Origin: Myxococcales bacterium
Lineage (GTDB): Bacteria > Myxococcota > Myxococcia > Myxococcales > Anaeromyxobacteraceae
Length of the DNA: 19,209 nt
Direction: 5' to 3'
Assembly: GCA_038320275.1 (NCBI GenBank)
Contig: JBBQEB010000068.1
Location: forward strand, 1-19,209
Shown: positions 3,099 through 19,164 of the stretch, in pieces
Position numbering within the stretch: position 1 is the first letter of the stretch
Layout of the letters: every line of letters begins with the position of its first letter
Position numbers and translations under genes: made by a program
The notes under the pieces: generated by a model
What the model was told of the DNA's origin: nothing
The model's input: the letters and a program-made list of their open reading frames with translations, nothing else
The model's database searches: none

Positions 3099-3562
3099 AT
3101 GCTGCGCATGAGCAAACTCACCGACTATGGCCTCGTGCTCCTCACGCACATGGCCCGAGCCTCGCCCGCCCAGCGCAGCGCGCAAGAGCTCTCCACCGCC
3201 TCGCGCGTCCCCATGCCCACGGTCTCGAAGATCCTGAAGGAGCTCTCGAAGGCGGGGCTCGTCCTCTCGCAGCGAGGGCGCAACGGGGGCTACAGCCTCT
3301 CCAGGCCCCCGGATCAGATCTCGGTGGCGGCGGTGGTCGAGGCGCTGGAGGGACCGGTGGAGCTCACCGAGTGCAGCAGCGGCGCGGAGAGCGGCTGCTC
3401 CCTCCAGGCAGACTGCGTGGCGAAGGGCCACTGGGGCCCCATCAGCCGCGCCATCCAGCGGACGCTGGAGCGCCTGCCGCTCACCGCGCTCGGCCCGCCC
3501 GTGCCGCCCCTCGCCCGCCTCGCCTCACCCTCTCACCCCGCAGCACGCCCGGAGACCACACC

Positions 3563-3566
<4 letters not shown>
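3099..3566 (+). CDS. SUF system Fe-S cluster assembly regulator (Rrf2/IscR family)
   Basis: [15 protein letters not shown], w[45 protein letters not shown], and three Cys ([16 protein letters not shown]) followed by His; first gene of the suf operon. Confidence 0.92.
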
Positions 3567-5810
<2,244 letters not shown>

Positions 5811-5814
<4 letters not shown>

Positions 5815-7106
5815 ACGCGGCCGAGACCGCCTTCGCGGCGCAGCTCGCCGCCCGTGCGCAGGAAGGCACCGGCGAGCCTCGCTTCCTGCGCGAGCTGCGC
5901 GGGGCCGCCCGCGACACCTTCCTCCACGTGAAGCTCCCCACCTCGAGGCACGAGGACTGGCGCTACACGAGCCTCTCCGCCCTCGGCGAGCAGACCTTCG
6001 TTCGCGCTTCGCCCTCGCGGGTCACGAGCGCGGACCTGCCGCCTGCGCCGCGGCTCGTCTTCGTGAACGGCCGGCTCGACCCGGAGGCGAGCGACGTCGC
6101 CGGGCTCCCCGAGGGCGTCCGCGCGGGGAGCCTCGCCGCTGCGCTGCGCGAGCGCCCGGAGGACGTCGAGCCGCACCTGGGCAAGGTGGCGACCACGCGC
6201 AACCAGGCCTTCGGCGCGCTCAACCTGGGGCTCTTCGAGGACGGAGCGCTGGTGGAGCTCGCGCCGGGCGCGAGCTGCGAGGCGCCCATCCACCTCGTCT
6301 TCCTCTCCGCCTCGCCGCTCCCCGCCGCCACCCACCCGCGGAACCTCATCCTCGCGGGGGCCGGTGCGCGCGCCACGGTCGTCGAGACCTACCGGGGCGA
6401 GGGCGCGTACCTCGTGAACGCGGTGACCGAGCTCCGGCTGGAGGAAGGCGCCGAGCTCGAGCACGACCGGGTGCAAGAGGAAGGGCCCGCCGCGTTCCAC
6501 GTGGGGGCGCTCGAGATCGCGCAGGGCGCGCGCAGCCGGCTCACGGGGCAGTCCATCGCGCTCGGCGGAAAGCTGGCGCGGGTGGAGGCCCGCACGCTGC
6601 TCGGCGCCGAGGAGGCCTTCTGTGATCTGCGCGGCCTCTCGGTGGGCGGCGGCCGGCAGGTGCTCGACCACTTCGTGCGGGTCGACCACGCCAGCCCCCG
6701 CTGTACCAGCCGCGAGACCTTCAAGAACATCCTCGACGGCTCCTCGCGCGGCGTGTTCGCGGGGCGCATCCACGTGCGAGAGGGCGCGCAGAAGACCGAC
6801 GCAGGCCAGGTGAGCTCCAACCTGCTTCTCTCCGAGGACGCCACCGTGGATGCGAAGCCGCAGCTCGAGATCCTCGCCGACGACGTGAAGTGCTCGCATG
6901 GCGGCGCGGTGGGGCAGCTCCGCGAGGACCAGCTCTTCTACCTGCGCTCGCGCGGGATCTCGGCCGCGCACGCCAAGGCGCTCCTCACCTGGGCCTTCGC
7001 CGCCGAGATGGTGGACAAGGTTGGGCCGGCCGAGGTGCGCGCGCGCGTCCGGGCTGCGGTCAGAGCGCGGCTCCCCGGCGGAGAGCTGCTGCGGGAGGTT
7101 GCATGA
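5811..7106 (+). CDS. sufD: Fe-S cluster assembly protein SufD
   Basis: LPTSRHEDWRYT, LVFVNG, GVFAGRIHVREGAQKTDA, KPQLEILADDVKCSHG, QLFYLRSRGI; ATGA overlap with sufC. Confidence 0.95.
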
Positions 7107-8356
7107 GGGCGGAGTCGCAGGTCTTGCAGGCGAGCCCGGCGCTCGACGTGGAGCGCGTGCGGGCGCAGTTCCCCATCCTGGCTCGCCCGGTGCGCGGCAA
7201 GCGGCTCGTTTACCTCGACAGCGCCGCCACCACCCAGAAGCCGCGCGCCGTCATCGACGCGGTCTCCCGCTACTACGAGGAGGAGAACGCCAACGTCCAC
7301 CGCGGGGTGCACTACCTCTCCGAGCGCTCCACCGAGGTGTTCGAGGGCGCCCGCGAGCGGGCACGCAGGTTCATCGGAGCGGCGGATGCGCGCGAGATCG
7401 TCTTCGTGCGGGGCACCACCGAGGGGATCAACCTCGTGGCCAGCTCCTTCGCGCGCGCGCGACTGCGCGAGGGCGATGAGGTGCTCGTCACCGGCATGGA
7501 GCACCACTCCAACATCGTGCCCTGGCAGATGGCCTGCGCCGAGCGCGGCGCAAAGCTGGTGGTGGCGCCCATCGACGACCGCGGCGTGCTGCTCCTCGAC
7601 GAGCTCGAGAAGAGGCTCGGGCCGCGCACGAAGCTCCTCGCCGTGACGCACGTCTCGAACGCCCTCGGGACGGTGAACCCCATCCGCGAGATCACCGCCA
7701 TGGCCCACGCTCATGGCGTGCCGGTGGTGGTGGACGGCGCGCAGGGGGTGCCGCACGTGCGGGTGGACGTGCGCGAGCTGGGCTGCGACTTCTACGCGCT
7801 CTCCGGCCACAAGATGTACGGCCCGACCGGCATCGGCGTGCTGTGGGGCAAGGCGGAGCACCTGGAGGCGATGCCGCCCTGGCAAGGGGGCGGCGACATG
7901 ATCCTGTCGGTCGCCTTCGAGAGCACGATCTACAACCGCATCCCGTACAAGTTCGAGGCCGGCACGCCCGACATGGCCGGCGCGGTGGGGCTCGCCGCGG
8001 CCATGGACTGGCTGGACGGGCTCGGGCTGGAGGCGGTGGCGGCGCACGAGCACGAGGTGCTGGAGCACGGCGCCGCCCGCCTGGCCGAGGTGCCGGGGCT
8101 GACCATGGTGGGGACGGCCCCGGGCAAGACCGGCGTGCTCTCCTTCGTGCTGAAGGACGTCCACCCGCACGACATCGGGACCGTGCTCGATCGCGAGGGC
8201 ATCGCCATCCGCACCGGGCATCACTGTGCTCAGCCCCTCATGAAGAGATTGGGCGTCGCGGCCACGGCGCGCGCCTCCCTCGGCGTCTACACCACCCGCG
8301 CCGAGCTCGACGCGCTCGCGGCGGGGCTGGAGAAGGTCAGGAGAATGTTCGCATGA
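7103..8356 (+). CDS. sufS: SufS group II cysteine desulfurase (417 aa)
   Basis: ATG 7103 overlaps the sufD stop with GGAGG upstream. Motifs YLDSAATTQKP, NVHRGVH, MEHHSNIVPWQ, DGAQ, SGHKMYGPTGIG (PLP lysine), FEAGTP, RTGHHCAQP (catalytic Cys). Confidence 0.96.
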   Translation: MRAESQVLQASPALDVERVRAQFPILARPVRGKRLVYLDSAATTQKPRAVIDAVSRYYEEENANVHRGVHYLSERSTEVFEGARERARRFIGAADAREIVFVRGTTEGINLVASSFARARLREGDEVLVTGMEHHSNIVPWQMACAERGAKLVVAPIDDRGVLLLDELEKRLGPRTKLLAVTHVSNALGTVNPIREITAMAHAHGVPVVVDGAQGVPHVRVDVRELGCDFYALSGHKMYGPTGIGVLWGKAEHLEAMPPWQGGGDMILSVAFESTIYNRIPYKFEAGTPDMAGAVGLAAAMDWLDGLGLEAVAAHEHEVLEHGAARLAEVPGLTMVGTAPGKTGVLSFVLKDVHPHDIGTVLDREGIAIRTGHHCAQPLMKRLGVAATARASLGVYTTRAELDALAAGLEKVRRMFA

Positions 8357-8808
8357 GCTCGGAGCTGGACGACCTCTACCAGGACGTGATCCTCGATCAC
8401 GGCCGCCGCCCTCGAAACTTCCGTATCATCGATGGCGCTGACCGCCAGGCCGAGGGGCTGAACCCGCTCTGCGGCGACCACTTCAAGCTCTACGTGAAGC
8501 TCGAGGGCGACCGGATCGCGGATATCGCCTTCGAGGGGTCGGGCTGCGCCATCTCGAAGGCCTCCGCGTCGCTCATGACCACCTCGGTGAAGGGGCACAC
8601 CATCGCCGAGGCAGAGGCGCTCTTCGAGCGCTTCCATACGCTCGTGACCGAGGGGCCGGACAAGGTGAAGGTCTCCGAGCTGGGCAAGCTGGCGGCGCTC
8701 TCCGGCGTGTGCGAGTTCCCCACCCGCGTGAAGTGCGCCAGCCTCGTCTGGCATACCCTGCACAACGCCCTCGAAAAGGAGCGGGCCGAAGTGATCTCGA
8801 CGGAATAG
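8353..8808 (+). CDS. sufU: SufU (NifU/IscU-family) sulfur-transfer protein (151 aa)
   Basis: ATG 8353 overlaps the sufS stop. Motifs LYQDVILDH, NPLCGD, FEGSGCAISKASAS, RVKCASL; three conserved Cys. Confidence 0.93.
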   Translation: MSSELDDLYQDVILDHGRRPRNFRIIDGADRQAEGLNPLCGDHFKLYVKLEGDRIADIAFEGSGCAISKASASLMTTSVKGHTIAEAEALFERFHTLVTEGPDKVKVSELGKLAALSGVCEFPTRVKCASLVWHTLHNALEKERAEVISTE

Positions 8809-13315: not shown

Positions 13316-13810
13316 CTATCCGCCCCAGCCCGTCACCGCAGTCGGTACCGTCACCTCCTCCTGTACGTCGGGGTGCTCCTCCGATACAGCAGCGGCGGAA
13401 GCCGTCTCCTTGGGCGCATGCCGCGCGGAGAGGCGGGTCGCAGGCAAGTTGAAGGGCTGAGCTCGGGCCCGGGGCGGGGTCGGAGGTGCGGTCGCGGTCG
13501 AGGTCGAGGTCGAGGTCGAGGTCGAGGTCGGGGTCGAGGTCGAGGTCGGGGTGGTGGTCGACTGGGCCGGCAGCGCCTCGGGAAGCACCGGCTGTACCGG
13601 CGGCGGGCCCTCCTGGGTGGACGGACTCGCTTCTCGGGTCGCGACGGCGACGGGCTCGGCGCGAGTGGAGTCAGGACCCGCGGTTCTCTGCGCCTCCGCG
13701 CCAGGACTTGAGCGCGGGGCGTGGAAGATCCTCCACGCCGCCGCGCCGCTCGTCACGAAGGTCGCGACGGAAAGCGCGGCCGCCACGATGACTTCCTTCC
13801 CCGGCGCCAT
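13316..13810 (-). CDS. Hypothetical single-TM protein with disordered Thr/Ser/Pro-rich region
   Basis: GAGAGGGG Shine-Dalgarno-like sequence before ATG, 12 nt downstream of the upstream gene's stop; N-terminal hydrophobic helix; TSTSTPTST linker; ends VTGWGG. Confidence 0.6.
   Translation of the reverse strand: MAPGKEVIVAAALSVATFVTSGAAAWRIFHAPRSSPGAEAQRTAGPDSTRAEPVAVATREASPSTQEGPPPVQPVLPEALPAQSTTTPTSTSTPTSTSTSTSTSTATAPPTPPRARAQPFNLPATRLSARHAPKETASAAAVSEEHPDVQEEVTVPTAVTGWGG
13491..13550. repeat. Ten tandem GTCGNG hexamers encoding a T-S/T-P/T-A linker
   Basis: GTCGCG GTCGAG x5 GTCGGG GTCGAG x2 GTCGGG, read directly. Confidence 0.9.
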
Positions 13811-13822
13811 GATCCCCTCTCC

Positions 13823-15523
13823 TCAGAACAGCGGGATGCGGTAGCCCGCCTCGAGGCCCACGCCGGCCGTCTCGACCTTGAACGCGTGAGCCGAGACAGG
13901 AGTGAAACCGAGGTTCAGGTCGCCGAAGAGCTGGCCGGGCCCCAGCCACACGGCCGCGGAGCCGACGCCCAGAGCCCCGGCGCCCATCGCGCCGGTGGTG
14001 GGCTGCCCAGCGGTGGCGATGCGCGCGTACACCACGCTCAGTCCGACGCCGGTCCCCAGCGAGAGAGAACCGCTCGACCACAGCTCGAAGAGGAGGCGGG
14101 CCGTCAGCGGGGCGAAGTCGGCCCGCGTGCTGCTCAGGAGCGCTCCCCCGGAGTCGAGGACCGTCCGCGCGGCGCTCCCCTCGGTGAGCGCGACGCCGAG
14201 GCCGAGCTTCACCGGCCCGAGAGCGAGCGGGGCGTAGAGCTCCAGGCCTTGACGGAAGCCTCGGTCGGCGTTGAGCGTGTTGGCAAACCCGGCGCGAGCC
14301 CCCACCAGGAGGCGGCGGGAGCGGGGCCGCGCGTCGTGCGTGGCGGGGGGCTCCGGCGCCAGGGGGGACGAGAACGGTCCAGGCGTTTGCAGGTCGCGGG
14401 GGGCGAAGGAGAAGGCGGCGAGGAGGGTGGGTGCCGCGGGTGGGGAACCGGGGGCGGTCGCGGTTGGGGTCGAGCTCGAGGTCGAGGACGGGTCCCAGGT
14501 CGGGGCCGAGTTCGCGGTCGGGTTCGAGTTCGCGGTCGCGGTCGAGGTCGAGGTCGGAGTCGAGGTCGAGGTCGGCCTCGCAGTCGCGGTCGAGGTCGCC
14601 GCCTCCCCCTCCACCGGCAGCACCACCACCATCGCGCTCGCCTTCGCGGCGGGGTCTCCCTCCACCGTCGCCGTGAACCGGACCTGCCGGGTCGCCTGAA
14701 CCGCGGCTGGCACGAACCTGAAGGACGCGCCTCGCTCGACGGCTCCCACCGGCTCCACCCTGCCTTCGCTGGAGACGACGCGGACCCTCTCCGGCGGCAC
14801 GGGCGAACCGGCGGCGTCGTACAGGGCATGGAGCCGCACCGCGCGGACGCCGTCGCCGATCAGCGCCGGACTGGAGACGATGAGCAGGAGTCGATTGACG
14901 GGGAACGTGCCCAGGGCCACCCGGCGAACCACCGGTGCCGCGCCGCCCACGATGGTGATGGTCGCGTGGCTCGCTCCGGGAGGCGCGACGATGGGGAGAT
15001 CGACCGCGCCGCGACCCGAGGAGGTGACCGGCCCGAAGACCTCGTTCCCGACACGGCCCAGCACTGCGAGCCCAGCCGGCGCCACCACCGGGAGCTTCGT
15101 CGCACCATGCAGAGGCAGGCGCGCCAGCTCGATCTCCGACTCCCGACCTTCGAGCCAGGCGGCGATCAGCAACGTCTGGGGGTGTCGGGATGGTGGCGGC
15201 GTGTAGCGGGCGCGGTACGTCGCGGGCCCCACCCGCTCGGCATCGCCGACGGAACCCACGTTGACCGCCAGCCGAAGCGGGCGGGGCTCGCCGTCCGCGG
15301 GCTCTCGTACCTCGAGGAGGAGCGTGGCCCAGGCCGCCCTCCCCAGCACGAGCCTGCCCTCCTTCACCGAGACGGTGAGCGCGCGAGCGCCGCAGGGGGC
15401 GAGAGCGAGGAGCAAGGCCGCGAGGGCAAGCGCGAGGCGGGGTGCGTTGAAACCCGGGTTCCGGGAACGAGTCCCTGGGTCGAGAACCTCCCCCTCCATG
15501 AGCGGCTTCCACGCCTCGAACAT
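13823..15523 (-). CDS. Secreted protein with Ig-like/invasin-type beta-sandwich domains, T/S/P linker and probable C-terminal outer-membrane beta-barrel; start could be 15499
   Basis: Signal-like RLALALAALLLALAPCGARA; Big-1-like segments (TYRARYTPP, ALIGDG...DAAGSPV...VRFTATV); amphipathic C-terminal strands ending GLEAGYRIPLF. Confidence 0.65.
   Translation of the reverse strand: MFEAWKPLMEGEVLDPGTRSRNPGFNAPRLALALAALLLALAPCGARALTVSVKEGRLVLGRAAWATLLLEVREPADGEPRPLRLAVNVGSVGDAERVGPATYRARYTPPPSRHPQTLLIAAWLEGRESEIELARLPLHGATKLPVVAPAGLAVLGRVGNEVFGPVTSSGRGAVDLPIVAPPGASHATITIVGGAAPVVRRVALGTFPVNRLLLIVSSPALIGDGVRAVRLHALYDAAGSPVPPERVRVVSSEGRVEPVGAVERGASFRFVPAAVQATRQVRFTATVEGDPAAKASAMVVVLPVEGEAATSTATARPTSTSTPTSTSTATANSNPTANSAPTWDPSSTSSSTPTATAPGSPPAAPTLLAAFSFAPRDLQTPGPFSSPLAPEPPATHDARPRSRRLLVGARAGFANTLNADRGFRQGLELYAPLALGPVKLGLGVALTEGSAARTVLDSGGALLSSTRADFAPLTARLLFELWSSGSLSLGTGVGLSVVYARIATAGQPTTGAMGAGALGVGSAAVWLGPGQLFGDLNLGFTPVSAHAFKVETAGVGLEAGYRIPLF
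14457..14600. repeat. Degenerate GTCGNG hexamer tract (Thr/Ser/Pro linker)
   Basis: Imperfect GTCGAG/GTCGCG/GTCGGG/TTCGAG units encoding TSTATARPTSTSTPTSTSTATANSNPT. Confidence 0.75.
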
Positions 15524-15632
15524 CGCTAATGTTTCCTCGGAAGTTCGGACCCCCGGGTGCCGGGAAGGCGCCCGCGAACAGGTCCTGCGAGGACGATGAG
15601 CAAGACCGGGACCAGCTCACGGACCTCCGTGA

Positions 15633-16016
15633 TCACCCGAGCGTCACCTTGCGGACACCCTTGGCTTCGAGCAGCCCCTTGACCCGCTCGCGGTGGTCGC
15701 CCTGGAGCGCCAGAGCGGCGTCCTCCACCGCCCCGCCACAGCCCAAGGACCGCTTCAGCTCCTCCAGCCAACGCTCTAGCTCGCGCGCGCCGAGGCCCAG
15801 CCCGTCCACGACCGTTGCCGTCTTGCCTCCCCTTCCCTTGCGCTCGAGGCGCACCACGGCGCGGGCTGGGCCACGCGCTGGTGCCGAGGGCGGTTCCGGG
15901 GGCGGTGGAGCGGCGGGGGGAGCCGAGCTCACCCCTAGCCTCCCGGCGAGGTCCTTGAACGGAGCATGGAACGGCTCCGGCGGCGGGGGTGGCGCGGGCG
16001 GGCGGCGCTTCGACAT
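15633..16016 (-). CDS. SUI1/eIF1-family translation initiation factor (YciH-like); 3' part of the same ORF as the TfuA-like gene
   Basis: VVRLERKGRGGKTATVVDGL...LKRSLGCGGAVED...LQGDHRERV is the SUI1 signature. Internal ATG at 16016 has GAGGAG 10 nt upstream. Confidence 0.88.
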   Translation of the reverse strand: MSKRRPPAPPPPPEPFHAPFKDLAGRLGVSSAPPAAPPPPEPPSAPARGPARAVVRLERKGRGGKTATVVDGLGLGARELERWLEELKRSLGCGGAVEDAALALQGDHRERVKGLLEAKGVRKVTLG

Positions 16017-17195
16017 GGCCTGACGTCTCCTCGGGGCATCCTGTACGCGCGCAGCCGCGAGCGCACGCGCCGCGCCCGCCCAGCTTCCATCGAGCTGGGC
16101 CGCGCGCGCGAGGCCTTCCTCCGCCGAGGGGCCGTCCGGGACGAGGCGCTCCGCCCGATGGAGCGCGAGCTCTTCGAGCGCGAGATCCTCGAAGAGCCGC
16201 CGGGCGTCGGCGTCGTCCAGCCCGCTCGCCGCCAGGAAGCTCGCGCGGCGCCGGGGCGGCACGCCGAGCGATGCCAGCCAGCTCTGCCCGGCCGCGTCCA
16301 CGTCCACCGGCGAGGGCTGGAGCCCCAGGCTCCGCGCCAGCCCTGCCAGAAGGAGTGTGCGCTGGCCGCTCGCCGCCAGCGCCAGCGCGTCGTCCCGGGC
16401 GCGAATCGAGTCGATCACCGCCCCCGAGGAGAGGAGCGCTCCGCCGACCGTCGTGGCGCCCTGGCGCAGCTTGGCGCGGCGCACCAGGGAGGATGGACGG
16501 CGCGGGGAGGGAGAGGGGGTGAGCGGAGCTCCGGACGCGGCAAAGGCGGCCGCGGCGGCGATGGTCTTGCGGGCATCGTCGGCCTTGGGGTCGGGTGGGC
16601 CTTGCCGGACGAGCGCACGAAGCCGCTCCATGGCGCCCGCGCCGAGCCTGCCTGCCGCGGCGTCGAGGAGCGCGCGCCAGGTGCGGTCGGCGTAGTGGAT
16701 CGCGGCCGCCGCCGCGACGAGCCGCCGCGCCTCCGCGGTGGAGAGCTCTCCCTTCGCGCGCGCCGCCTCGGCGGTGAAGCGCACCTGCACGAGGGGAACC
16801 GTCAGCGGGCGGTGACCCGCGTCGGCAGGGCCGTGCAGGAGCGCGACCTCGTCGTCGCCGGTGAGCCGGCCAGCGGCAAACGCCGCGTAGATCTCCCCCA
16901 CGCCCACCATGCCGTGGACGGACAGCTCTGCCGCGCGGAGCGCCCCCATGCTGGCGCCGCCGAAGACGGCCACGCCGCCGTCGAGCGCGTCGAGCAGCTC
17001 GTGGTGCCACACCGAGGGCTCCGAGCCGAACACGCCGTCCACGAGCGCGATGGCGCGTGGCCGGAGCGTGAGCGCGCGCCACACGTCGCCCTGACGGGCG
17101 GGAGGGAGCACGGTGCAGCGCGCGATGCGCCGCGCCTCGGGCGCGGGAAGCGAGGGGCCCAGGAAGACCAGGAGCGGCGAGCTCCGCGGGGTCAC
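15633..17195 (-). CDS. TfuA-like protein (YcaO thioamidation partner) with helical extension, in-frame fused to SUI1
   Basis: VFLGPSL, VLPPARQGD, IALVDGVF, SVWHHELLDAL, VFGGASMGALRAAEL, GMVGVGEIY, DDEVALLH, LTVPLV, IHYADRTW and DPKADDA are TfuA-family motifs. No stop before the SUI1 domain. Confidence 0.9.
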   Translation of the reverse strand: MTPRSSPLLVFLGPSLPAPEARRIARCTVLPPARQGDVWRALTLRPRAIALVDGVFGSEPSVWHHELLDALDGGVAVFGGASMGALRAAELSVHGMVGVGEIYAAFAAGRLTGDDEVALLHGPADAGHRPLTVPLVQVRFTAEAARAKGELSTAEARRLVAAAAAIHYADRTWRALLDAAAGRLGAGAMERLRALVRQGPPDPKADDARKTIAAAAAFAASGAPLTPSPSPRRPSSLVRRAKLRQGATTVGGALLSSGAVIDSIRARDDALALAASGQRTLLLAGLARSLGLQPSPVDVDAAGQSWLASLGVPPRRRASFLAASGLDDADARRLFEDLALEELALHRAERLVPDGPSAEEGLARAAQLDGSWAGAARALAAARVQDAPRRRQAMSKRRPPAPPPPPEPFHAPFKDLAGRLGVSSAPPAAPPPPEPPSAPARGPARAVVRLERKGRGGKTATVVDGLGLGARELERWLEELKRSLGCGGAVEDAALALQGDHRERVKGLLEAKGVRKVTLG

Positions 17196-17329
17196 AGCAG
17201 CTCCGAGAGGAGAAGCCCGGGGACGAGCACCTTCACGACGTGTACGCCGAGCGAGGGAGGGGCGAGCTCGATCGCGGCGCAGGTGCGGTGGCCGGCAGCA
17301 CGAAGGCGGGCCAGGACGAGCGCGAGGTC
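17192..17329 (-). pseudogene. C-terminal remnant (~45 aa) of a YcaO-family protein
   Basis: DLALVLARLRAAGHRTCAAIELAPPSLGVHVVKVLVPGLLLSELL resembles the YcaO C-terminus (L..L...G....DL....G.PVVKV.VPGL). Its TGA overlaps the tfuA GTG. Upstream the frame becomes DRDLD repeat and then non-YcaO sequence. Confidence 0.75.
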
Positions 17330-19164
17330 GCGGTCGAGGTCGGGGTCGCGGTCGGGGTCGCGGTCGAGGTCGCGGTCGAGGTCGCGGTCGAGGTCGAGGT
17401 CGCGGTCGAGGTCGCGGTCGGGGTCGGGGTCGGGGTCGGGGTCGAGGTCGAGGTCGCAGTCGGAGCGGTCCTCATGCCCGTCCCCCTCCCCGCCGCCACC
17501 CGCCTCCCATAAACCCACCACCCCACCCCCGCCGCCAACGCACCCGCCAGCACCAACCCCACCAACCCTCCGACGATCCATCCCGCCCCCGACGACCCCG
17601 GCGGATGCATCGACGCCGTCCGCGGGAGCGGACGAAACTCCGGAGGTTCGGTCGGCATCAGCTCACGCTGCATCTGCGGCTGGTACCCCGGAGCCGGGAC
17701 ATACGGCGCGGGCGCAGCGAAGCTCCCCATCGTGAGCACCGGTGTCTGCACTGGAGGCGGTGGCTGAGGCGGAGGCGGAGCCGACGCTGGCCGCACCTCG
17801 GCCGTCGCTTGCAGATCCGAAGGAGCCGGATCCCGCATCATCGTGGGCTCCGAGGGGATCTTCGGCCGTGGCGCCGTGGCCGCATCGGAGGGGATGTCCG
17901 GGGGTGCGGTCGAACGGAACCCTCCGGTCAACGTCGACTTCCCAGGAGCCAGCTCCGCCTTCGCCGGCGCCGACACCGGACGAAACCCGCTGGGCGTCTG
18001 CGGCCGCAGCGCCTCTGCGGGAATGGGCATGGTCGCGACGGCCGTCATCCCGGTCCCAGTCTGGGCCAACACGGGCCGGGTGGAAGGAGGCGGGGGCGGG
18101 CGGCGCTCCGTCTTCGGCGGCACCTCGGGCTCCAGCTCGAACGACGGCAGAGATTCGGCCGTCTCCAGCAGCTCGTGGACCACCGTGTCCACGCCGACCT
18201 CCGCCGCGCCCGCCGCCTGCGGACGCAGGGGTGCCAGCATCCGGGCCAGGCCTTGCCGAGCGCGCTCCACGTCGGTGTGGTCGCGCAGCACCGAGGCCAT
18301 CTCCTCGGCCGTGATGGAGCGTCGCGCAGGGTTCGGCTCCAGCCCGCGTGAGATGGCTTCGCGAAGAACTTCCGGAAGCTCGGGCCGGAGCACGTCCAGG
18401 CTCGGGAGGTTCGGCTCGGCCATCGCCCGGAGGATTTCCATCTCGGGGAGCTTCTCGGTCTGCACCGCCTTGCGATGGGCGAGGAGCTCCCACAGGACCA
18501 GCGACGCCGCGTAGACGTCGGTGCGGATGGTGATCCGCTCCCCGCGCACTTGCTCGGGCGACATGTAGCCGTAGGTGCCCTTGATGTAGCCGGTCTTCGT
18601 CTCGCTCTCGCCCCCAGGGTCCGCGATCTTGGCGATGCCGAAATCGGTGAGCTTGCCTTGCCCGTCCCATGGCAAGAGCACGTTCGAGGGGTTCACGTCG
18701 CGGTGGATGACCGGCGTCGGGTCGCCGGTGGCCGGATCGCGCGCGTCATGCGCGGCGGCCAGCGCATCGAAGATGCGCAGCGCGATGTAGAGCGCCGGCT
18801 GGTCCTCGACCCGGCCACCGGCCTGGAACGTCAACGTGAGGAGCTTCGCGAGCGACACGCCGTCCACGTACTCGAGCACCATGACCAGCGGCCCGCCGAT
18901 CTCGAAGAAGTCGAAGAGGCGGACGACCGCGGGGTGCCCGAGGCGCGCGTACGCGCTCGCCTCGCGGGTGAACATCCGCGCGAACTCCGCATCCCCCTGG
19001 TGCTCCGAGAGGAGACGCTTGAGGACCACGGTTCGCTCGAACCCGTGCGGCCCCTCGGCGCGCGCAAGCAGGACGTCGCTCGTTCCCCCGGTCGCAAGTC
19101 GTCGGAGGAGGCGATACCCCCCGATGCGACCCAGCGTCGGATCATCCGGGGGGAGCGCGCGCAT
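17233..19164 (-). CDS. Hanks-type Ser/Thr protein kinase with Pro-rich linker and TM helix; native C-terminus probably missing
   Basis: YRLLRRLATGGTSDV, VVLKRL, LEYVDG, IHRDVNPSNVLL, KLTDFGIAK, KGTYGYMSPEQ, TDVYA; TM WIVGGLVGLVLAGALAAGVGWWVY. After the T/S repeat it ends in an out-of-frame reading of the YcaO remnant. Confidence 0.92.
   Translation of the reverse strand: MRALPPDDPTLGRIGGYRLLRRLATGGTSDVLLARAEGPHGFERTVVLKRLLSEHQGDAEFARMFTREASAYARLGHPAVVRLFDFFEIGGPLVMVLEYVDGVSLAKLLTLTFQAGGRVEDQPALYIALRIFDALAAAHDARDPATGDPTPVIHRDVNPSNVLLPWDGQGKLTDFGIAKIADPGGESETKTGYIKGTYGYMSPEQVRGERITIRTDVYAASLVLWELLAHRKAVQTEKLPEMEILRAMAEPNLPSLDVLRPELPEVLREAISRGLEPNPARRSITAEEMASVLRDHTDVERARQGLARMLAPLRPQAAGAAEVGVDTVVHELLETAESLPSFELEPEVPPKTERRPPPPPSTRPVLAQTGTGMTAVATMPIPAEALRPQTPSGFRPVSAPAKAELAPGKSTLTGGFRSTAPPDIPSDAATAPRPKIPSEPTMMRDPAPSDLQATAEVRPASAPPPPQPPPPVQTPVLTMGSFAAPAPYVPAPGYQPQMQRELMPTEPPEFRPLPRTASMHPPGSSGAGWIVGGLVGLVLAGALAAGVGWWVYGRRVAAGRGTGMRTAPTATSTSTPTPTPTPTATSTATSTSTATSTATSTATPTATPTSTATSRSSWPAFVLPATAPAPRSSSPLPRSAYTS
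17327..17464. repeat. About 23 tandem GTCGNG hexamers at the kinase/YcaO junction
   Basis: Continuous GTCGCG/GTCGAG/GTCGGG units. They read TSTATPT in the kinase frame and DRDLDPD in the YcaO frame. Confidence 0.92.

Follow-up and report, generated by a model that had tools for sequence, protein, structure and literature searches.

An in-frame TfuA–YciH fusion in a myxobacterium and its likely origin in stop-codon loss at overlapping genes

The window, by which we mean the whole 19,209-nucleotide stretch analysed, comes from a soil/sediment myxobacterium (genome G000) and encodes TfuA and YciH in a single open reading frame; this in-frame fusion is genuine and without sequence error. We think it likely that the fusion arose through passive loss of the tfuA stop codon at a junction where the two genes overlapped, and that it is tolerated, with free YciH probably still being made. 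An earlier note on the same DNA had offered stop loss between neighbours as the simpler alternative to a link between TfuA and translation, and this alternative fits better: 26 of the 27 adjacent tfuA–yciH pairs in relatives and host are separate genes, and the fusions occur at separate places in the tree.

The fused gene and its product

The 520-codon open reading frame has zero internal stops, and its reading in the earlier note as a complete TfuA domain joined to a complete SUI1 domain was borne out by Pfam, which matched TfuA (PF07812) at residues 53–172 (E 3e-42; 143.5 bits against a gathering score of 30) and SUI1 (PF01253) at residues 447–514 (E 1e-12; 48.6 bits against 25.5), both over the cut-off (Table 1). 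It holds the only TfuA and the only SUI1 copies found in the genome, and the nearest named homologues of the fused protein in a protein search were from Anaeromyxobacteraceae, which is the basis for the family name. The same note had allowed for a stop or indel at the tfuA–yciH junction, and there a separately assembled contig agrees exactly: a Logan contig of sequencing run X1, at depth 7, spans positions 15927–17022 including the junction with 0 differing letters and 0 gaps. X1 is probably the source sample of the assembly, so this identity rules out an assembly slip as a second assembly rather than a second sample; runs X2–X20 held only about 5% of the words. A promoter and terminator scan of positions 15400–17400 found none.

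Table 1. Features at and upstream of the fused gene in the window
Feature	Coordinates	Strand	Remarks
Fused tfuA–yciH ORF, 520 aa	15633..17195	-	GTG start overlaps ycaO stop (GTGA)
Complete yciH, 127 aa, nested in frame: basic/Pro-rich N-terminus and SUI1 (15654–15857)	15633..16016	-	Free-YciH alignment; Foldseek 1d1r
Helical C-terminal extension, conserved in myxobacterial TfuA (aa 232–390, ~160 aa)	16026..16502	-	pLDDT 95 folded alone
Shine–Dalgarno-like GAGGAG	16027..16032	-	10 nt before internal ATG
TfuA domain (aa 9–213)	16557..17171	-	NF033432 E 1e-52; Foldseek 6xp8
ycaO C-terminal stub, ~46 codons	17192..17330	-	Remaining ~340 codons absent from assembly
Tandem repeat of a hexamer (22 copies), probably a chimeric join in the assembly	17323..17462		No listed contig spans it
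Ser/Thr kinase gene cut at repeat; probably not the locus's true neighbour	17463..19164	-	Homologue P0147

An AlphaFold2 model of the fused protein, built on a 147-row alignment (mean pLDDT 84, pTM 0.56), predicts, in order, the TfuA domain, a helical domain, a tether of low confidence and a domain resembling eIF1; the junction itself (residues 389–410) falls below pLDDT 50 in parts. Foldseek superposed the TfuA domain on Methanosarcina TfuA 6xp8 with E 6e-17, rmsd 1.7 and a TM score of 0.92 on the target. Ser82 and Lys204 are invariant in our alignment A1, with their motifs kept in six of six fusions; Liu and colleagues reportedly described a Ser/Lys catalytic pair in TfuA in 2021, and we take these two residues to be its putative equivalent. 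PMC13063428 describes TfuA as a hydrolase through which sulfide from a thiocarboxylated carrier reaches YcaO.

The helical extension claimed by the earlier note does fold confidently in prediction. A profile of it retrieved 111 representatives, 23 of which we scanned: TfuA was present in 20, and the other three had no family assigned. The extension itself was assigned to no family by Pfam, NCBIfam, PDB-sequence or Atlas searches, the non-TfuA rows of the Atlas search reaching a TM of at most 0.43, and zero Foldseek rows stood at E≤0.001; the top four were SurA/PEB4 (E 0.22–1.1, TM about 0.4), with PrsA also among the best rows, all at E>0.2. From these model comparisons, a SurA-N/PrsA-like client-binding domain would be a weak lead for its identity.

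Downstream, residues 394–520 match 60 free YciH proteins of 120–138 aa end to end, with a shared basic start, PF motif and Pro-rich stretch; what had been described as a Pro-rich linker is thus YciH's own N-terminal part, and is not specific to the fusion. Foldseek matched the SUI1 part to E. coli YciH (1d1r), and also to 5zcy. Like other bacterial YciH/SUI1 proteins (PF01253; 1d1r) it is a complete SUI1 domain with RKGRGGK, CGG and QGD motifs; it differs from them in the basic/Pro-rich N-terminal part of about 50 aa that the family's proteins have, and in being encoded in frame with TfuA in G000, where it scores under the NCBIfam YciH cut-offs. SUI1/YciH proteins bind the 30S subunit.

The in-frame ATG at 16016 and the GAGGAG before it, from which free SUI1 had been suggested to be made, are both present at a spacing of 10 nt. 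The internal start Met is kept in six of six fusions, which makes two isoforms plausible, a long TfuA–YciH and a short YciH. In the four coupled relatives compared the spacing is shorter, and G000 may accordingly make less free YciH. Start signals in the relatives fell into two patterns: yciH genes adjoining tfuA have a Shine–Dalgarno sequence in 22 of 25 cases and a −10-like hexamer in 2 of 25, and separate yciH genes have a Shine–Dalgarno sequence in 7 of 34 and a −10-like hexamer 5–9 nt before the start in 15 of 34 (shifted control, 0/34). The latter pattern suggests that stand-alone yciH genes (for example at loci L056, L059, L116 and L129) may give leaderless transcripts.

Recurrence of the fusion and geometry of the junction

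We searched 92 genomes of the family and found tfuA adjoining yciH in 27, from three genera. G000 has the one fused pair; in 23 others yciH lies in the −1 frame and in one it lies in the +1 frame, and two pairs were scored as in frame but separated by a stop: G073, with TAA between the genes, and G088, which appears frameshifted. The −1 pairs overlap by 4 nt (15 pairs), 1 nt (3) or 73–85 nt (5), the ATGA-type overlap being the commonest. A further 25 family genomes have both genes apart, a contig end limiting a few of these calls (for example in G012); in the other 40, at least one of the two genes was not found or not retrieved. The gene order proposed in the earlier note as a mark of conservation is therefore kept in part of the family, in those 27 genomes; the two genes are separated in 25, and adjacency was never seen among 61 sampled genomes of sister family f6, a count that includes G170, flagged unpublished. 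In genus g9 of family f1, yciH was found in 11 genomes out of 14, and TfuA in none of the 14. Outside the family, linkage was seen only in family f4, where yciH lies divergent just upstream of ycaO–tfuA (locus L019, genome G056); in the six other f4 genomes that have both genes, these are separate. At two loci (L062 in G008 and L146 in G076) an M20 peptidase gene sits directly beside yciH, divergent, as if ycaO–tfuA had left from between them.

The fused architecture, sought in relatives, recurs in five other clusters. A protein search returned 968 homologues of 286–910 aa, and among the best 120 of the 968, six have both domains: the query and five clusters 50–63% identical to it. Two of the clusters comprise 18 and 12 member sequences, which indicates that the fused state persists in populations. 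A search with the YciH part found TfuA fusions as its only long proteins (5/5 matches); it overlooked P0012, and is therefore incomplete. A metagenome scan covered 41 loci, of which five had adjacent genes and none was fused.

To place the fusions we used a TfuA tree of 41 rows, comprising 18 adjacent loci with full tfuA, the 6 fusions and 17 neighbours chosen from 110 rows. On it the fused label needs five changes, four of them forced by starred branches. A single ancient fusion was rejected: one clade for all six fusions has p-AU 8e-5 on the TfuA part (41 rows) and 3e-4 on the YciH part (66 rows, few columns). Smaller groupings, picked after seeing the tree, were retained by the AU test, namely P0002+P0003+P0004 (p 0.31) and P0006+P0012 (p 0.074); each possibly being one clade, and some fusions possibly being old, the trees indicate that the fusion arose 3–5 separate times.

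The junctions vary in length. Measured from a conserved DGP motif they span 25–45 aa across the six fusions, and in 26 unfused pairs the tfuA tail runs 31–81 codons past the same motif. Among unfused top homologues, 6 of 114 tails read like yciH out of frame by a motif test, one of them for the greater part of the gene. The ycaO–tfuA junction, taken as a control, is fused in 0 of 96 loci, among which several genomes are counted twice and are not independent. A programmed −1 frameshift that would yield the fused product in unfused relatives was rejected: an X_XXY_YYZ site occurs in the last 50 tfuA codons of 0 of the 26.

These observations can be assembled into a passive route to the fusion. 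Much of the family has the order ycaO–tfuA–yciH with stop/start overlaps of 1–4 nt, which would imply one coupled transcript. The basic C-terminal tail of TfuA varies freely in length, so a small indel or stop mutation would sometimes put yciH in frame and sometimes run tfuA on out of frame, and both outcomes are seen; at this locus the tfuA stop would have been lost by indel or substitution. The long product would then be a TfuA acting as the sulfur-delivery partner of YcaO, as its published role and the model suggest, with SUI1 on a flexible tether, and the short product an ordinary 127-aa YciH from the internal start. The fusion is likely tolerated because the retained internal start is predicted still to give free YciH. 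Several points count against passive loss: repeated fusion of the same gene pair is a classic sign of functional partners, the long proteins found with this YciH were all TfuA fusions in the incomplete search, the fused state persists in two populated clusters, some fusions may be old, the longer Shine–Dalgarno spacing may lower free YciH, and the tfuA/yciH overlap is kept across three genera. In E. coli, moreover, 30% of gene pairs this closely spaced encode complex subunits, compared with 7% of those far apart (PMC10666635), which leaves 70% without a complex.

The break upstream of the fusion

The YcaO–TfuA pair that the earlier note placed at this locus is incomplete, since only the stub of ycaO precedes tfuA and a search of G000 found no further YcaO. 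In relatives, a full-length ycaO lies directly before tfuA in most loci. Both ycaO and the kinase gene beyond it break at one repeat, for which a chimeric join is the likely cause; the repeat is thus probably such a join and the missing ycaO an artefact, a real rearrangement being possible instead. Contig laying skipped positions 17311–17469, as it does repeats, so bridging contigs could escape.

The kinase homologue P0147, 93% identical, has a Thr/Ala repeat of its own followed by a C-terminal domain, which the G000 kinase lacks, and the named homologues of the kinase are from Polyangiaceae, Labilithrix or unplaced Myxococcota at about 60% identity, against 31–36% for its own genus. The relatives' YcaO has a variable low-complexity loop at the stub's break point, in one case with a DRD-type repeat. 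An M20 peptidase gene, divergent from ycaO in many relatives, had no close match in G000. A composition test of the kinase side against the tfuA side did not separate them (z −0.79), and a search for the source of the kinase in 150 other genomes of the phylum returned nothing at E≤1e-60.

Some 15 of the G000 contigs have such hexamer repeats at an end, so further chimeric joins may exist in the assembly. Within the window, the same hexamer family recurs at 13478–13561 and 14456–14598, inside two unannotated open reading frames (13316–13810 and 13823–15523), where it encodes Thr/Ser/Pro linkers. About 7 kb from tfuA, at 3371–8808 on the plus strand, is an ordinary suf iron–sulfur operon with genes for SufB, an ABC ATPase, SufD, a cysteine desulfurase and a NifU-like protein.

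The YcaO–TfuA pair and its candidate substrates

We compared the family's YcaO–TfuA pair with the known systems that it resembles. The relatives' YcaO is about 365 aa long with a median pI of 9.2 (range 5.7–12.0; 51 rows, trimmed to the BLAST start), and its profile matches methanogen MJ1094 at E 2e-55 against E 2e-13 for E. coli YcaO, the weakest of six PDB matches. The methanogen YcaO–TfuA pair that makes McrA thioglycine (NF033432/TIGR03266; 6xp8) shares the TfuA fold and the overlap of the ycaO stop with the tfuA start, and its YcaO is the closest in type among solved structures; the myxobacterial TfuA differs in its helical extension of about 160 aa and, in G000, its fused YciH. Assignment to the McrA system was rejected, with scores of 179 against 235 for NF033432 and 105–121 against 365 for TIGR03266, both below the equivalog cut-offs.

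E. coli YcaO, which thioamidates ribosomal protein uL16 (PMC13063428), is comparable in that it too is a YcaO that may bear on translation. It has 586 aa, a pI of 4.4 and no TfuA, against the basic, TfuA-paired enzymes here, and the same paper describes the suspected uL16-modifying YcaOs as highly acidic, at pI 4.4, with no TfuA encoded nearby. We accordingly rejected membership of that group, as the relatives' YcaO is mostly basic and tfuA overlaps ycaO; the uL16 thioamide, which had been invoked as a precedent, is not transferable to basic, TfuA-paired YcaOs with an MJ1094-like profile.

Against passive stop loss stands, first, a functional link of the Rosetta-stone kind, in which YciH would be a substrate, carrier or targeting partner of YcaO–TfuA, coupling would keep their stoichiometry and fusion would tether TfuA to YciH and so to the 30S subunit. 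We consider this unlikely. It draws on the coupled ycaO–tfuA–yciH order in 27 genomes of three genera, the three to five independent fusions, the yciH divergent beside ycaO in another family (G056), and a TfuA extension that, on its weak SurA-like lead, could bind a protein client; no precursor-like gene was seen upstream of the relatives' ycaO among open reading frames of at least 45 aa, the usual neighbour being the divergent M20 peptidase, and E. coli YcaO makes a ribosomal thioamide (PMC13063428). Against it, no linkage exists in 25 genomes of the family, in any of the 61 sampled from f6 or in the six further f4 genomes with both genes, and yciH persists in genus g9, where TfuA was not found. 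The enzymes also point elsewhere: the suspected uL16-modifying YcaOs are acidic with no TfuA nearby (PMC13063428), whereas the myxobacterial YcaO has a median pI of 9.2 and an MJ1094-like profile, and a mostly basic YcaO would fit the basic N-terminus of YciH poorly. A more specific form of the proposal, that YcaO and the long TfuA of the Anaeromyxobacter family, with its extra client-binding domain, would thioamidate YciH itself or a 30S component reached via YciH, leaving the coupled operon and the 3–5 fusions as its trace, seems to us decidedly unlikely.

We have strong doubts about the second alternative, in which YcaO–TfuA would make a thioamidated RiPP or modify an unlinked, non-ribosomal protein, with yciH as a hitch-hiker on the operon transcript, an arrangement compatible with passive stop loss. 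Adjacent ycaO–tfuA genes mark thioamidated RiPP clusters, including those of thioamitides (PMC8120280), and also McrA thioglycine (PMC5589413); the contrast in Shine–Dalgarno and −10-like signals between adjacent and separate yciH would fit a promoter of its own traded for coupling. The RiPP clusters differ in their surroundings, however: the myxobacterial neighbours are M20 peptidase and yciH, no conserved precursor or tailoring gene is seen beside the pair, and the downstream neighbours, called with a crude ORF picker, vary. That the G000 fusion is a sequencing or assembly error is highly improbable, since a low-depth metagenome contig, probably joined chimerically 1.3 kb upstream, and a fused protein that forms a singleton cluster are outweighed by the separate depth-7 contig, equal to 15927–17022 without difference, and by the five further clusters of the same architecture, two with 18 and 12 members.

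The TfuA–SUI1 architecture appears undescribed, as the earlier note had supposed: we found no paper on such a fusion in the literature searched. Queries for TfuA with SUI1, TfuA with yciH, and YcaO with Anaeromyxobacter returned none from a search mostly confined to literature outside subscription, and papers on TfuA and myxobacteria, judged by title and the start of the abstract, included none on the fusion. The main texts of PMC8120280 and PMC5589413, in the parts covered, contain no myxobacterial terms; their supplements, or data set 3 of PMC13063428, may list such loci.

If passive stop loss is the correct explanation, the family offers a small, clean case of overlapping, coupled genes repeatedly yielding one domain fusion without new function, and a caution that the TfuA–SUI1 architecture is not to be taken as a ribosome-modifying enzyme. 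Were YciH or the 30S subunit the target after all, the pair would represent a TfuA-dependent thioamide in the translation apparatus, a second route distinct from that to uL16 in E. coli. The lasting lead is the widespread myxobacterial pair of YcaO and long TfuA, an orphan with no substrate in the literature searched, for which YciH is one candidate.
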